Source of the DNA: Anaerolineae bacterium
Lineage (GTDB): Bacteria > Chloroflexota > Anaerolineae > UBA1429
Direction of reading: 5' to 3'
DNA length: 64,000 bases
NCBI GenBank assembly: GCA_963675785.1
Contig: OY776562.1
Location: 2,624,001-2,688,000, forward strand
Below, piece by piece: positions 14,462 to 21,426 of the stretch. Below the pieces are notes generated by a model. The model did not search any database. It saw only the letters and a program-made list of their open reading frames with translations, and was not told the origin of the DNA. Position numbers and translations under genes: made by a program. Position 1 is the first letter of the stretch, and each line of letters starts with the position of its first letter.

Positions 14462-14490
14462 TTGCAAAGCATACCCCCCTATAGTATAAT
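14462..14490 (+). promoter_or_regulatory. Sigma70 promoter with overlapping CsoR/RcnR-type operator
   Basis: TTGCAA-17 bp-TATAAT; spacer contains ATAC-CCCCCTATA-GTAT (14471-14487). Confidence 0.6.
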
Positions 14491-14541
14491 GGTGCCGATC
14501 AGTTATGGGCACAATGCTCTATCAGGCTCGTTCTTAATACC

Positions 14542-14570
14542 TTGACCTTGCATTTCGCAACAGTTATACT
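14542..14570 (+). promoter_or_regulatory. Second sigma70 promoter of the ferritin/encapsulin locus
   Basis: TTGACC-17 bp-TATACT; spacer holds imperfect palindrome TTGCATTTCGCAA. Confidence 0.6.
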
Positions 14571-14618
14571 TTTTATGTTAGCTTTTTCATATCTCTCGCC
14601 GTTCAAGTTGAGGAAACT

Positions 14619-15074
14619 ATGCCTGCGTTCTCTGATATTCTCCGCATAGCTATCCGCCGGGAAATGGATAGTTATGCCCTGTATACGCAAACCGCCGAAA
14701 TGGTGGAATCGTCCTCCGGCAAAGAGCTCCTTCACGATCTTGCCAAACAAGAGGCCCTGCACCGCGAAAAACTGGAACAGCTTTTGGAGACAGGATCGGT
14801 CGATCTCGATTCCAACGCTGAAAAGCGCGTTGTCGATCTCAAAATCACCGATTATCTGGTCGAACCCCAGTTAGAACGTGGCTCAGACTTTCAACAAATT
14901 CTTATTGTTGCTGCTAAACGGGAAAAGGCCGCCTACGATCTGTATCTTGCCATGGGGCAGGTTACAGAAGACAGCCAGATCCGTAGCCTTTTCGAGTTTC
15001 TCGCCGGCCAAGAACTGGAGCACAAACAGAGGCTCGAAATCTTTTATGACGACATCGTTCTACGCGAAAACTAG
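14619..15074 (+). CDS. Ferritin-like diiron protein (rubrerythrin-type four-helix bundle, no rubredoxin domain)
   Basis: Duplicated E..Y...ExxH motifs: RREMDSY/QEALH and KREKAAY/QELEH. Confidence 0.88.
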   Translation: MPAFSDILRIAIRREMDSYALYTQTAEMVESSSGKELLHDLAKQEALHREKLEQLLETGSVDLDSNAEKRVVDLKITDYLVEPQLERGSDFQQILIVAAKREKAAYDLYLAMGQVTEDSQIRSLFEFLAGQELEHKQRLEIFYDDIVLREN

Positions 15075-15094
15075 CAATTGAGGAGTAAGAAACA

Positions 15095-15256
15095 ATGAAA
15101 TGGGAATGCCTGGTTTGTGGCTGGATTTACGACCCCGCTGTGGGCGATCCTGATGGCGGCATTGAACCCGGTGTCGCCTTTGAAGACCTCCCAGATGACT
15201 GGGTGTGCCCTGAGTGTGGTGCGACCAAAGACATGTTTGAGGCTATCGAGGAATAA
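15095..15256 (+). CDS. Rubredoxin (53 aa, below the ORF-track cutoff)
   Basis: [62 protein letters not shown]. Confidence 0.96.
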
Positions 15257-15409
15257 GCTTTGCAATTGCGCCCCAAAAAAACGCTGATCAGCAGTCAGAT
15301 AGCCTAGCAGAAAAGAACGTTAGGCAAAACGGGTGCTTGCGTATGTGCCCAGTAGCCGATGTCTTTTGGGCATCTTTTTCATTATGTAAAGACTAGAGAC
15401 GGAGGCATT

Positions 15410-16333
15410 ATGCAGGACAAGATCATAGAAATGCTGCGCGCAGACATGCGCGGCGAGCATCAAGCCATCATACAATACCTGTTCCACGCCTATGCCATGG
15501 GTGAAGGCGAACTGGCCTGTGAAATCGAAGCCATCGCCCGCGAGGAAATGCGCCACCTCGATTGGTTGGCCGACGCCATCATCGAACTTGGCGGAGATCC
15601 TTCCATGGACCGTGACCCCGTTGATTTTGCCATGGACCTTGTAAGCGCTCAGATGGCCAAAGATGTCATTCTTGAAGAAAGGGCCATTGCTCAATACCGC
15701 GCTCATATGGAAGCCATTGAGGACGAAAAAATTCGCCGTCTTTTGGCGCGCATCGTCCATGACGAGGAATCGCACCATGGCGATTTTGAGCACTTTGTCG
15801 AAAAAACCGCAGCAGAAGAACAAGCAACCGAAGGCGCCGAGGCACCCGCTCCCTCTCCCATGGCTCAGCGCTTGGCTGAGATCCTGAACCAGGGTATTCA
15901 CCACGAGTACAGCGTTCTTTTACAATATATTTTCCATTCGTTCGTTGCACCAGATAAGGAACGGGCGGAAGAGCTACAGAACATAGGCATCAATGAGATG
16001 CAACACATGGGCTGGCTTGCTGAGGAAATGATGGGCATGGGAGGAATGCCCATATTTGAGCATGGCGATCTCGTGCTTACCCATGATATGGAAGAGGCAT
16101 TGGAAGCTGATATTGAGGTCGAGCGCGAGGTGACTAACACCTACAGTCGACAGATTCCCGAAATCGATGACCCCGGCATCAAGAGCCTTATCGAGCGCAT
16201 TCGAGACCACGAGATCTATCACGATGCCGTCTTTACCGATCTACTGGAAGAAACGCGCGAGCAGGAACCAGAGAAGAAACCTGAAGACAAAAAGACGTCA
16301 ACCCCACCCAGCGTGGGTAGTCTTAAAAAGTAG
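15410..16333 (+). CDS. Tandem double bacterioferritin-like protein; probable encapsulin cargo
   Basis: Two four-helix units (EEMRH/DEESH and NEMQH/HEIYH), charged P/K/E linker and C-terminal SVGSLKK; GGAGG RBS before ATG 15410. Confidence 0.85.
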   Translation: MQDKIIEMLRADMRGEHQAIIQYLFHAYAMGEGELACEIEAIAREEMRHLDWLADAIIELGGDPSMDRDPVDFAMDLVSAQMAKDVILEERAIAQYRAHMEAIEDEKIRRLLARIVHDEESHHGDFEHFVEKTAAEEQATEGAEAPAPSPMAQRLAEILNQGIHHEYSVLLQYIFHSFVAPDKERAEELQNIGINEMQHMGWLAEEMMGMGGMPIFEHGDLVLTHDMEEALEADIEVEREVTNTYSRQIPEIDDPGIKSLIERIRDHEIYHDAVFTDLLEETREQEPEKKPEDKKTSTPPSVGSLKK

Positions 16334-19797: not shown

Positions 19798-19810
19798 GGG
19801 AGTAAACACC

Positions 19811-20323
19811 ATGACGGTGACTGTCTATTCAACCCCGACCTGCCCGTATTGCGTGCAGGTCAAGCGATATCTGGAACAAAAGGGCATCACGTATAACGAC
19901 ATTGACGTATCGCGCGACTCGACGGCGGCCGCAGAAATGGTGCGCATCTCGGGTCAGCGCGGAGTTCCTGTGACAGTGATCGATGAACACTTTGTTGTGG
20001 GATTCGATCCTTCCCAACTGGACCAACTGCTTTCCAGCGCCAGACGTCCTCGCCTTGGGGCTGCCATCGCCGACGCTGAAACGATGGCCCAACAGGGCAA
20101 ATGCGTCGAAACAGTGGGCGCCTATGTGGGCGCTGTCCGCCCAGAATCTGTTGCCGGACGCGCCAGCATAAAACCGGGCGATGTCATCATCTCCATAGCT
20201 GGGCAACCCATAAGGCATGCCAGCGATATAGAAAGGCTGCTACCAAGGATACACCCCGACCAGCGCGTGCCGCTTATCCTCATTCGGGGAGACCAGCAGC
20301 AAGAAGTGTACCTCCGTTTCTAG
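19811..20323 (+). CDS. Glutaredoxin (YruB/NrdH-like) fused to a PDZ domain
   Basis: CPYC, SGQRGVPV, GFD; then RLGA...GAYVG.V...S.A.RA.IKPGDVI. Confidence 0.85.
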   Translation: MTVTVYSTPTCPYCVQVKRYLEQKGITYNDIDVSRDSTAAAEMVRISGQRGVPVTVIDEHFVVGFDPSQLDQLLSSARRPRLGAAIADAETMAQQGKCVETVGAYVGAVRPESVAGRASIKPGDVIISIAGQPIRHASDIERLLPRIHPDQRVPLILIRGDQQQEVYLRF

Positions 20324-20343
20324 CACCCAAAGGGGGGAAAACA

Positions 20344-20835
20344 ATGGCAGAGATCAGCACAGATTGTTGGGCACTCAACCAAGCACTGGAACTGGAACAA
20401 GAGGGCTATGACTTTTATCAGCGAATGGCAGGCAGCGTAACGGACGCCGCCTGTAAAGACACTTTTGCTTCACTCGCTGACGACGAAAGACACCATGCCG
20501 ATCTGATCACGCAGCAAATCAACCAGATTGAGACCTGTGGCATTTTCGTACGCCTGCCTGGCGTAGAGCCCGTCGATATCGACATCGATGTTCGCCTTTA
20601 CGCTCCGAGCATGGACACCAACAAGGATTTGGGGGAAAAGGCTACGGAAATCCAGGCCATGCACATCGCCCTGGATACTGAAATTCGCACTTATAACATG
20701 TACCGACATGCTGCGGCAAATACCGAGGACAAGGCAGGCCAGGAGATGTACCGTTGGCTGGCCGCAGCGGAACTGACGCATTTCAATTTGCTCATGGCCA
20801 ACTACCAAGCAATGACTGGCCTGGGCTATATCTAG
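20344..20835 (+). CDS. Ferritin-like/rubrerythrin-type diiron protein
   Basis: LEQEGYDFY...DERHH and TEIRTY...AELTH. Confidence 0.85.
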   Translation: MAEISTDCWALNQALELEQEGYDFYQRMAGSVTDAACKDTFASLADDERHHADLITQQINQIETCGIFVRLPGVEPVDIDIDVRLYAPSMDTNKDLGEKATEIQAMHIALDTEIRTYNMYRHAAANTEDKAGQEMYRWLAAAELTHFNLLMANYQAMTGLGYI

Positions 20836-20855
20836 TATCGAAAGGAACTGCCTTC

Positions 20856-21383
20856 ATGGATAAGCAAGCTGCTTTGGATGTCATCAAGAGGGGCATGTCC
20901 ACCGAGATCTGGGGGCTGCGCTTTTACGAACAGGCCGTTGCCCGCACCAAAGATGAGATGGGTAAGCAGGTCTTCCAGTCGCTCTTGAATGACGAAGAAG
21001 AACACCTAACCATTCTGCGTGGCGAATATGCCTCAATAGAATGCAATAGTTGCTGGATCAGCCGTGACCAAGCCGTCAAAATGGCTGAACAGGTTGAACC
21101 CACCGATATCTTCCCGGATGCCAAGAGCGCCGAACAGCTCATCCCCGAGGGTGCCTCTGACGAGGATGCGCTCAAGATGGCCCTTGATTTTGAAAGGCGC
21201 GGCTATGACATGTATGCCGAGCAGGCAGACAAGGCTACTTCAGCAGATGCCAAAAAGATGTGGGGCTACCTTGCCAAAGCAGAAAACGCTCACTATGCCT
21301 ATCTCGACAAGAGCCTTGATTTTCTTGCCTCAAATGGTGTTTGGTATTTCGACGAGAATGAACTGCCCTTCTTTGAAGGCTGA
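20856..21383 (+). CDS. Ferritin-like/rubrerythrin-type diiron protein
   Basis: TEIWGLRFY...DEEEH and FERRGYDMY...AENAH; aromatic tail WYFDENELPFFEG. Confidence 0.85.
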   Translation: MDKQAALDVIKRGMSTEIWGLRFYEQAVARTKDEMGKQVFQSLLNDEEEHLTILRGEYASIECNSCWISRDQAVKMAEQVEPTDIFPDAKSAEQLIPEGASDEDALKMALDFERRGYDMYAEQADKATSADAKKMWGYLAKAENAHYAYLDKSLDFLASNGVWYFDENELPFFEG

Positions 21384-21394
21384 TTCGGCTCAAC

Positions 21395-21426
21395 AAAAAA
21401 GGGGCGGCAAATTGCCGCCCCTTTTT
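21395..21426. terminator. Bidirectional intrinsic terminator
   Basis: AAAAAA-GGGGCGGCAA-A-TTGCCGCCCC-TTTTT. Confidence 0.85.

Follow-up and report, generated by a model that had tools for sequence, protein, structure and literature searches.

We lean towards reading a nine-gene locus in an Anaerolineae genome (Chloroflexota; assembly GCA_963675785.1) as one stress operon, in which iron sequestration by an encapsulin and its ferritin-like DFLP cargo would be combined with di-iron reductases that are fed by rubredoxin and take their electrons from a two-subunit 2-oxoacid oxidoreductase (OFOR). The locus lies within a 64,000-nucleotide stretch of contig OY776562.1 (positions 2,624,001 to 2,688,000), hereafter the window. 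Besides the genes for cargo, shell, rubredoxin and the two OFOR subunits, it contains one for a glutaredoxin fused to a PDZ domain (Grx-PDZ) and three for further ferritin-like proteins (Fer1, Fer2 and Fer3), and all nine reached curated family cut-offs in profile searches. The C-terminal tail of the cargo co-varies with the presence of a shell gene, the OFOR and Grx-PDZ genes are linked to the locus across many relatives, and the active site of Grx-PDZ alternates between selenocysteine (Sec) and cysteine.

Encapsulin shell and DFLP cargo

The shell protein satisfies the curated Family 1 model (HK97-fold Linocin_M18), and its closest solved structure is that of Myxococcus xanthus EncA (4pt2 / 7s20, E = 1.4e-38). 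Directly upstream, across a 14-nt gap, lies the cargo gene, whose product ends in a targeting peptide and aligns along its entire length with PDB 9viw (E = 7.6e-42), a two-domain 'Bacterioferritin' of 306 aa. The longest open reading frame (ORF) for the cargo begins at 15359; alignment and a GGAGG ribosome-binding site favour a start at 15410. The protein has the DFLP architecture, with a pair of four-helix di-iron domains, a linker that is disordered and a tag at the C-terminus; an initial annotation of the window had called it a 'double-Bfr' cargo, which was correct as to a two-domain ferritin-like protein, the family name now being DFLP. In an alignment of 17 orthologues the E / ExxH / E / ExxH ligands were kept in both halves and residues E16, E46, M47, H49, E89, H122, E166, M197, H199 and E268 were invariant, the second domain being degenerate in the two most distant sequences. 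A methionine stands beside the first ExxH of each domain in all 17 (M47 and M197), and by analogy with Bfr Met52 the pair are putative haem ligands.

To relate cargo tails to shell genes, 80 DFLP loci were collected from public genomes, and the 69 with at least 1.3 kb of downstream sequence were assessed. All 32 DFLPs whose gene is immediately followed by a shell gene had a tail of the form [VIL]G[SGK]L, as against none of the 37 without one, which stop right after the last helix. Shell-adjacent orthologues all end in xVGSL followed by 1-6 residues. Because the tail co-varies with the shell gene in this manner, there is strong evidence that PSVGSLKK serves as an encapsulin targeting peptide. 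A genome-wide scan for xVGSL tails returned no convincing bearer besides the DFLP, hence no secondary cargo; the other 15 matches were short or out-of-frame ORFs and one 678-aa membrane protein. Fer1-3 were also considered as cargo and rejected, as they carry no tag and their families are present in islands that have no shell gene. In a related strain (run X4) a 15-nt in-frame insertion at 16257 falls in the low-complexity linker ahead of the targeting peptide.

Conservation of the shell neighbourhood

Neighbourhoods of ~10 kb on each side of the shell gene were compared by mapping the window's proteins with tblastn. Of the 36 genomes sampled from the same family, 33 encode the shell protein. 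Among those that could be assessed, rubredoxin was in the operon and Fer1 upstream of the shell gene in 29/29 each, and the cargo was present in 29/30. OFOR alpha directly followed the shell gene in 24 of 28, and Grx-PDZ belonged to the operon in 23 of 25 (23/24 by script, to which locus L047 was added as a negative, with Fer2, Fer3 and the AIM24-family gene directly after its shell gene); these two counts contradict the possibility, raised in the initial annotation, that OFOR and Grx-PDZ are not conserved beside the encapsulin.

Of 45 loci from outside the family, 8 have an OFOR gene no more than 10 kb from the shell gene; these 8 represent four families and add four gene orders. In the first, cargo and shell are separated by ~5 kb of other genes from an erythrin (the type of protein to which Fer1-3 are assigned below), OFOR and Grx-PDZ; in the second, cargo and shell are followed by another gene, Grx-PDZ and OFOR; in the third, OFOR precedes cargo and shell; and in the fourth, OFOR lies ~4 kb downstream of the shell gene. 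The linkage spans more than 20 genera, with shell proteins only about 50% identical. Because OFOR and Grx-PDZ are conserved at the locus within the family, and OFOR near the shell gene in four other families, a functional link is well supported.

Four same-family operons, in genomes G008, G014, G017 and G035, are without OFOR and still keep Grx-PDZ and/or erythrins. An OFOR of 49-51% identity is encoded elsewhere in G008 and G017; no orthologue was found genome-wide in G014 or in G035, the latter genome being 87% complete. Two loci are unusual in other respects. That of G014 (L060), with no such OFOR in its genome, has its shell gene after Fer1, rubredoxin and reductase genes, with no upstream DFLP detected. 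Locus L110 of genome G311 encodes an encapsulin of 32% identity with no upstream DFLP match; further downstream (4-5.6 kb) come OFOR alpha and beta, the beta ORF being extended to 452 aa.

Shell-less oxidative-stress islands

Within 11 kb of the 37 DFLP genes that have no shell gene, rubredoxin was found at 24, OFOR at nine and Grx-PDZ at four. One such island (L144) runs on a single strand from genes for a Fur-family regulator, a flavodiiron protein, a reductase, a rubrerythrin, a DJ-1/PfpI protein, a desulfoferrodoxin and a tail-less DFLP to those for an FMN reductase, OFOR alpha, OFOR beta, an 87-aa ORF, a nitroreductase, Grx-PDZ and an erythrin. The 87-aa ORF (L144:16542-16802; also in L205) belongs to no Pfam family and adjoins OFOR in shell-less islands, with matches of 53-100%.

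The distribution of OFOR was further surveyed in a class sample of 300 genomes (counts are out of 301), with an orthologue threshold of E <= 1e-100. Of 20 OFOR loci away from a shell gene, 14 had co-oriented stress genes no more than 10 kb away, three of these loci duplicating islands already seen. Counted as stress genes were those for erythrin, Grx-PDZ, rubrerythrin, superoxide reductase, flavodiiron protein, DJ-1, FMN reductase and nitroreductase. In 7 of 36 relatives the gene immediately preceding Fer1 is of the Fur family; the present genome has two members of that family at other sites (31-34% identity).

Because the same set of genes sits beside tail-less DFLPs without a shell gene, the link is with the stress island and not with the shell. 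Gene neighbourhoods thus place OFOR, Grx-PDZ and the erythrins in an oxygen/peroxide defence island of these anaerobes, with the DFLP as a member and the encapsulin as an optional shell around the DFLP.

The shell-less islands also bear on reductive iron release, which the initial annotation had entertained and which they weaken. Under that explanation, electrons would travel from OFOR to rubredoxin or Grx-PDZ and, by way of the shell pores or the DFLP haem, to the ferric core, in the manner of Bfd. In 24/28 relatives the genes beside the shell do include an electron source and a small carrier, a methionine neighbours ExxH in both DFLP domains, and DFLPs are reported to bind haem (Anuchina et al., 2025; bioRxiv 10.1101/2025.09.13.676036). 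However, OFOR (9/37) and rubredoxin (24/37) also accompany untagged DFLPs with no shell, and the island companions are those that detoxify peroxide, superoxide and oxygen, not genes for iron uptake or release. We therefore regard iron release as very unlikely to be the purpose of the set. A related proposal is that OFOR and rubredoxin form an NAD(P)H-independent line servicing the encapsulated iron store, gating ferroxidase turnover or releasing iron, with the (seleno)Grx-PDZ docking a component's C-terminal tail as a redox switch. We consider this distinctly unlikely; were such a dedicated line to exist, it would give encapsulin iron remobilisation its first described enzymatic partner system.

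The 2-oxoacid oxidoreductase

OFOR alpha comprises POR, POR_N and PFOR_II domains. OFOR beta, encoded after a gap of 2 nt, comprises TPP_enzyme_C and PFO_beta_C, with thiamine pyrophosphate (TPP) binding and one Fe-S cluster motif. No ORF for a delta (2x[4Fe-4S]) subunit is present among the nine operon genes. The closest solved structures for the alpha subunit are 5b46 and 6n2n (E ~1e-87). The OFOR reached no equivalog model, scoring 361 bits against PRK11866, which has a cut-off of 402. The genome has two POR_N genes, this OFOR alpha and one of an enzyme of the four-subunit type.

The OFOR might instead be a metabolic enzyme acting on a 2-oxoacid such as 2-oxoglutarate or pyruvate and delivering its electrons to the ferredoxin pool. 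As a stand-in, it would be co-induced with the stress genes so that carbon flux continues when oxygen damages the four-subunit enzyme; as a client, it would be protected and reactivated by Grx-PDZ and the erythrins. Such a role would fit its wider occurrence in the class (OFOR alpha in 95/301 genomes, encapsulin in 74/301), the 6 of 20 unlinked OFOR loci with none of the counted stress genes nearby, and the fact that the only other POR_N enzyme of the genome is of the four-subunit type. In three of the gene orders, moreover, the gene next to OFOR beta or alpha is that for Grx-PDZ, and the pyruvate:ferredoxin oxidoreductase (PFOR) of Desulfovibrio africanus is reportedly protected by a disulfide switch that thiol reductants reverse. 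On the other hand, the operon has no ferredoxin gene while rubredoxin is in all 29 assessable relatives, and Grx-PDZ stays in the operon where OFOR is elsewhere (G008, G017) or was not found (G014). Taken together, we find a metabolic role credible but rather doubtful.

Grx-PDZ, a selenocysteine/cysteine family

Grx-PDZ is a YruB-type glutaredoxin, with CPYC at residues 11-14, fused to an HtrA-type PDZ domain (PDZ_6, 39.7 bits vs 27). The PDZ domain has a conserved RPRLGA stretch, the LG of which is kept in orthologues, and this is a putative carboxylate-binding loop. C14 of the active site is invariant, whereas position 11 is either Cys or TGA. The codon for this first cysteine is replaced, always by TGA, in 15 of 34 distinct orthologues (L033, at 5870-6379 on the - strand, L034, L035, L037, L040-L042, L044, L045, L055, L060, L061, L081, L082 and L090). 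All 15 have an 8-bp hairpin, resembling a selenocysteine insertion sequence (SECIS), that starts 18 nt downstream of the TGA, and in one family the hairpin has undergone a compensatory change, from GUGAAAGA/UCUUUCAC to GCGAAAGA/UCUUUCGC. Among the 19 Cys forms, which include that of the window, the hairpin is identical in L050, partial in L058 and absent in 17. The genome carries selB (319 bits vs 242), yet its own Grx-PDZ uses Cys.

Grx-PDZ is therefore a Sec/Cys protein family. Because the TGA for selenocysteine falls at the active site in so many orthologues, the alternation argues for catalytic redox chemistry by this protein. Weak matches to the Grx-like selenoprotein models NF041212 and NF041199 were also obtained, and a feature-based search for look-alikes yielded clusters of Grx+PDZ proteins, mostly from Chloroflexota. 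With regard to the partner of the PDZ domain, a predicted complex of Fer2 and Grx-PDZ, in which the PDZ domain might hold the Fer2 tail, scored 0.08 vs a mark of 0.32, a result that counts neither way. Binding of the targeting peptide by the PDZ domain was rejected, as Grx-PDZ persists where the DFLP has no tag.

Rubredoxin, its reductase and Fer1-3

In 25 of 29 relatives, a ~405-aa FAD oxidoreductase (NirB-N / NorW / PadH-like, and rubredoxin reductase-like) is encoded between rubredoxin and cargo. Here the gene is absent from that position (15257-15409), where a weak terminator-like hairpin (15358-15374) lies just before the cargo ribosome-binding site, and the best paralogue elsewhere in the genome is 36% identical. 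The comparison indicates that the reductase gene was lost from the operon in this genome. It also alters the circuit drawn in the initial annotation, the conserved linkage of OFOR and Grx-PDZ being upheld and the view of OFOR as the lone conserved electron input having to be given up.

Fer1-3 scored above the PF02915 cut-off, as rubrerythrin-type di-iron four-helix proteins. In profile searches none of them matched RUBY_RBDX or rubredoxin, the rubredoxin being a separate gene, and because they have no fused C-terminal rubredoxin-like FeS4 domain they are filed as erythrin-like and not as canonical rubrerythrins. The ligand pattern E, ExxH, E, ExxH of Fer1 is conserved in 36 sequences, and di-iron ligands and a C-terminal tail are conserved in both Fer2 (28 sequences) and Fer3 (25 sequences). 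The tails read ...LYEELVYxEN in Fer1 (15054-15074) and ...ELPFFEG in Fer3 (21363-21383); the hydrophobic end of Fer2 (20821-20835) is GLGYI here and mostly ...GGWV in relatives. All three are possible PDZ ligands. Solved relatives of these proteins are limited to weak matches to 2fzf and 1vjx, with none for Fer3, and offer no pointer to function.

Organisation and transcription of the locus

The nine ORFs, all on the + strand, lie between rnpB and a bidirectional terminator, exactly as had been annotated at the outset; the count of eight genes given alongside those nine ORFs does not hold, there being plainly nine (Table 1). Intergenic gaps measure 2-23 nt, except for one of 153 nt between rubredoxin and cargo and one of 70 nt between shell and OFOR. 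A consensus scan located a likely operon promoter and a second promoter-like site ahead of Fer1. In relatives, a TTGACA / TA(G/C)AAT pair is visible upstream of Fer1 at a matching distance from the start codon (36 sequences, by eye). Counting of k-mers in the Fer1 upstream regions gave no shared palindrome, just the promoter hexamers and a clade-specific TAGAATGATTACAAG.

Table 1. Features of the encapsulin locus and its borders (positions are those of the window).
Feature	Position	Strand	Description
rnpB	14071-14442		upstream boundary; 315 bits
Second promoter-like site	14462-14490		consensus scan
Likely operon promoter	14542-14570	+	TTGACC, 17 nt, TATACT; consensus scan
Fer1	14619-15074	+	151 aa; Rubrerythrin PF02915, 53 bits
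Rubredoxin	15095-15256	+	53 aa, CxxC...CxxC; NF045768, 95.8 bits vs cut-off 90; PF00301
Rubredoxin-cargo gap	15257-15409	+	153 nt
DFLP cargo	15410-16333	+	307 aa; two ferritin-type stretches
Targeting peptide PPSVGSLKK (putative)	16304-16330	+	C-terminus of DFLP cargo
Family 1 encapsulin shell	16348-17130	+	260 aa; NF041155, 178.4 bits vs 100; PF04454, 161 bits
GC-rich stem-loop	17135-17163	+	GGGCCGC-GCAU-GCGGCCC, then UUUUGU
OFOR alpha	17201-18922	+	573 aa, fused gamma+alpha; TIGR03710, 661 bits vs 483
OFOR beta	18925-19797	+	290 aa; TIGR02177, 336 bits vs 262
Grx-PDZ	19811-20323	+	170 aa; TIGR02196, 102 bits vs 88.55; PDZ_6, 39.7 bits
Fer2	20344-20835	+	163 aa; PF02915, 38.7 bits
Fer3	20856-21383	+	175 aa; PF02915, 41.4 bits
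Bidirectional intrinsic terminator	21396-21426	both	14-bp stem, 8 GC pairs, flanking A and T runs
AIM24 / TIGR00266-family gene	21434-22114	-	convergent; shares the operon terminator

The stem-loop after the shell gene has a folding energy of -25.3 kcal/mol (z = -3.54), and 0/200 shuffles folded equally well; the hairpin first placed at 17139-17163 is thus real, at about 17135-17163. The equivalent gap folds above mononucleotide shuffles in many distinct relatives (z < -2 in 14/29, z < -3 in 12/29), the U run being absent from most of these structured gaps. A consensus scan of the + strand from 15927 to 19056 found no promoter-like site, hence none in the 70-nt gap, and because of this the stem-loop probably sets the ratio of shell to enzymes, either by terminating part of the transcripts or by stabilising 3' ends. 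In metatranscriptome run X20, short contigs from a close relative cover parts of Fer1 (14824-15050) and of the shell gene (16529-16952), with none on cargo, OFOR, Grx-PDZ, Fer2 or Fer3 and none across 17130-17201; such contigs cannot show transcript ends.

The junction could also be one of chance, with a Fer1-encapsulin unit ending at the hairpin (17135-17163) and an unrelated unit running from OFOR to Fer3. The UUUUGU that follows the hairpin, the structured element after the shell gene in 14/29 relatives and the 4/28 relatives in which OFOR is missing at this position would all agree with that. Chance is nevertheless an extremely improbable explanation in our view: the linkage extends across more than 20 genera and arises anew, in four other gene orders, outside the family, the 70-nt gap has no promoter-like site, and Fer2 and Fer3, downstream, share a protein family with Fer1, upstream.

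Several other features of the window lie outside the locus. The convergent AIM24-family gene keeps its synteny in most relatives of the same family (70-78% identity). A 1367-aa ORF (22521-26624, +) with many predicted membrane helices follows shortly after the locus. A SAM riboswitch (40689-40813) and two tRNA genes (28034-28106 and 1111-1184) were identified as Rfam gathering matches.

Proposed mechanism and points against it

In the single stress operon that we favour, the shell would be loaded with the DFLP ferroxidase via the C-terminal PSVGSLKK tag, and the DFLP would oxidise Fe2+ and keep iron out of Fenton chemistry. Rubredoxin would hand electrons to Fer1-3, which would reduce H2O2 and/or O2. 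The two-subunit OFOR would oxidise a 2-oxoacid with CoA and pass low-potential electrons to the rubredoxin chain with no need of NAD(P)H. Chains of NROR, rubredoxin and rubrerythrin operate in clostridia and Desulfovibrio, and the rubredoxin of Chlorobium is said to take electrons from pyruvate:ferredoxin oxidoreductase. Because the rubredoxin reductase-like gene appears to have been lost from the operon, OFOR would be the sole electron input left in it here; in most relatives the NAD(P)H-type reductase would provide a second one. Grx-PDZ would act as a thiol oxidoreductase (a selenol one in many relatives) in a branch for disulfide repair or reactivation, its PDZ domain holding a client protein by the C-terminus. 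The stem-loop after the shell gene would cut read-through, giving more shell and cargo than enzymes. The electron-transfer steps, the substrates, the regulation and the PDZ ligand in this scheme are those that we infer from the genes and their neighbours.

A number of points weigh against this scheme. Electron transfer from OFOR to rubredoxin is putative, and the NAD(P)H-type reductase that stands beside rubredoxin in most relatives could be the real donor. The extra glutamate of canonical rubrerythrin sites is, as we understand those sites, absent from Fer1-3, and for this reason their peroxidase activity is not assured. Four of the 28 same-family operons lack OFOR, so the shell system does not depend on it, and its role may be one in general metabolism; its occurrence in more genomes of the class than encapsulin, and the six unlinked loci with no stress genes, count in the same direction. 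The hairpin with its short U run could end most transcripts before they reach OFOR. Finally, the genomes compared are kin and not independent, and genes were detected in them by tblastn with the window's own proteins.

Comparison with known systems

Encapsulin cargo with two four-helix bundles, termed 'Bfr', has been described from Firmicutes, Aquificae, Chloroflexi and Cyanobacteria (Andreas & Giessen, 2021; PMC8346489). The name DFLP comes from work on TmDFLP and CaDFLP, which reports that these proteins form dimers, bind haem and act as ferroxidases, and which points to genes for rubredoxin and rubrerythrin in the vicinity of CaDFLP (Anuchina et al., 2025). The locus described here has the same cargo family with two di-iron four-helix domains, an xVGSL tag and a shell gene directly downstream; it differs in that the tag begins with Pro-Ser, theirs beginning with Phe-Thr. 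In the available text of the DFLP preprint (bioRxiv 10.1101/2025.09.13.676036), supplements aside, the terms 'oxidoreductase', 'glutaredoxin' and 'Chloroflex' have 0 occurrences. Neither this text nor that of PMC8346489, supplements aside, places a 2-oxoacid oxidoreductase, a glutaredoxin or a rubredoxin reductase in DFLP operons, and that of PMC6934571 contains nothing relevant to these accessory genes. The DFLP-encapsulin pair is already known, and the accessory set of OFOR and Grx-PDZ was described nowhere in the literature searched, supplementary operon drawings aside, in agreement with the view taken at the outset that an encapsulin operon of this kind was undescribed.

Myxococcus xanthus EncA, the closest solved shell, likewise has ferritin-like cargo with a ...VGSL C-terminal tag. 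The role of EncA lies in oxidative stress and iron storage. Its cargo proteins EncB/C/D, however, are of the single-domain EncFtn type, with the genes of some at other places in the genome; M. xanthus is an aerobe, and its operon is without rubredoxin, OFOR and Grx-PDZ.

Among anaerobes, clostridia and Desulfovibrio possess NROR-rubredoxin-rubrerythrin, flavodiiron and superoxide reductase systems under PerR control. As in those systems, rubredoxin here adjoins rubrerythrin-family proteins, with a reductase in 25/29 and a Fur-family gene in 7/36 relatives, and flavodiiron protein, desulfoferrodoxin and rubrerythrin are found in the shell-less islands. In contrast, OFOR, Grx-PDZ and, at about half of the DFLP loci, encapsulin are built in, and the fused rubredoxin domain of true rubrerythrins is absent from Fer1-3.

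The OFOR shares its fused gamma-alpha subunit, its beta subunit with TPP and one cluster, and the absence of delta with the Sulfolobus tokodaii StOFOR (5b46) and the 573-aa 6n2n enzyme. Those enzymes serve central metabolism with ferredoxin, whereas this one sits in a stress operon in which rubredoxin is the only small carrier nearby. TIGR02196, the cut-off of which the Grx domain exceeds, is to our understanding the model of the YruB glutaredoxin-like protein from the rubredoxin operon of Clostridium pasteurianum. Grx-PDZ resembles YruB in its association with rubredoxin and differs from it in the fusion to an HtrA-type PDZ domain; with the Grx-like selenoprotein families it has in common the alternation of Sec and Cys at the active site. 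Bacterioferritin and Bfd offer a further parallel, as a ferritin-family store beside a small iron-sulfur electron carrier, with the Met positions kept in the DFLP. In this case, however, the carrier is rubredoxin in place of the 2Fe-2S Bfd, the neighbouring enzymes are detoxifying ones, and loci that have no shell still keep the set.

Encapsulins with ferritin-like cargo are known, but the supply or removal of electrons around them is not. The locus singles out candidate partners for this, namely rubredoxin, its reductase, a two-subunit OFOR, a Sec/Cys Grx-PDZ and three orphan di-iron proteins. The comparison of loci shows the shell itself to be an optional part of a wider oxidative-stress island in anaerobic Chloroflexota, and loci with and without it provide a natural comparison for what encapsulation adds. 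More broadly, the arrangement suggests that strict anaerobes of digesters and sediments can power their peroxide/oxygen defence directly from 2-oxoacids.

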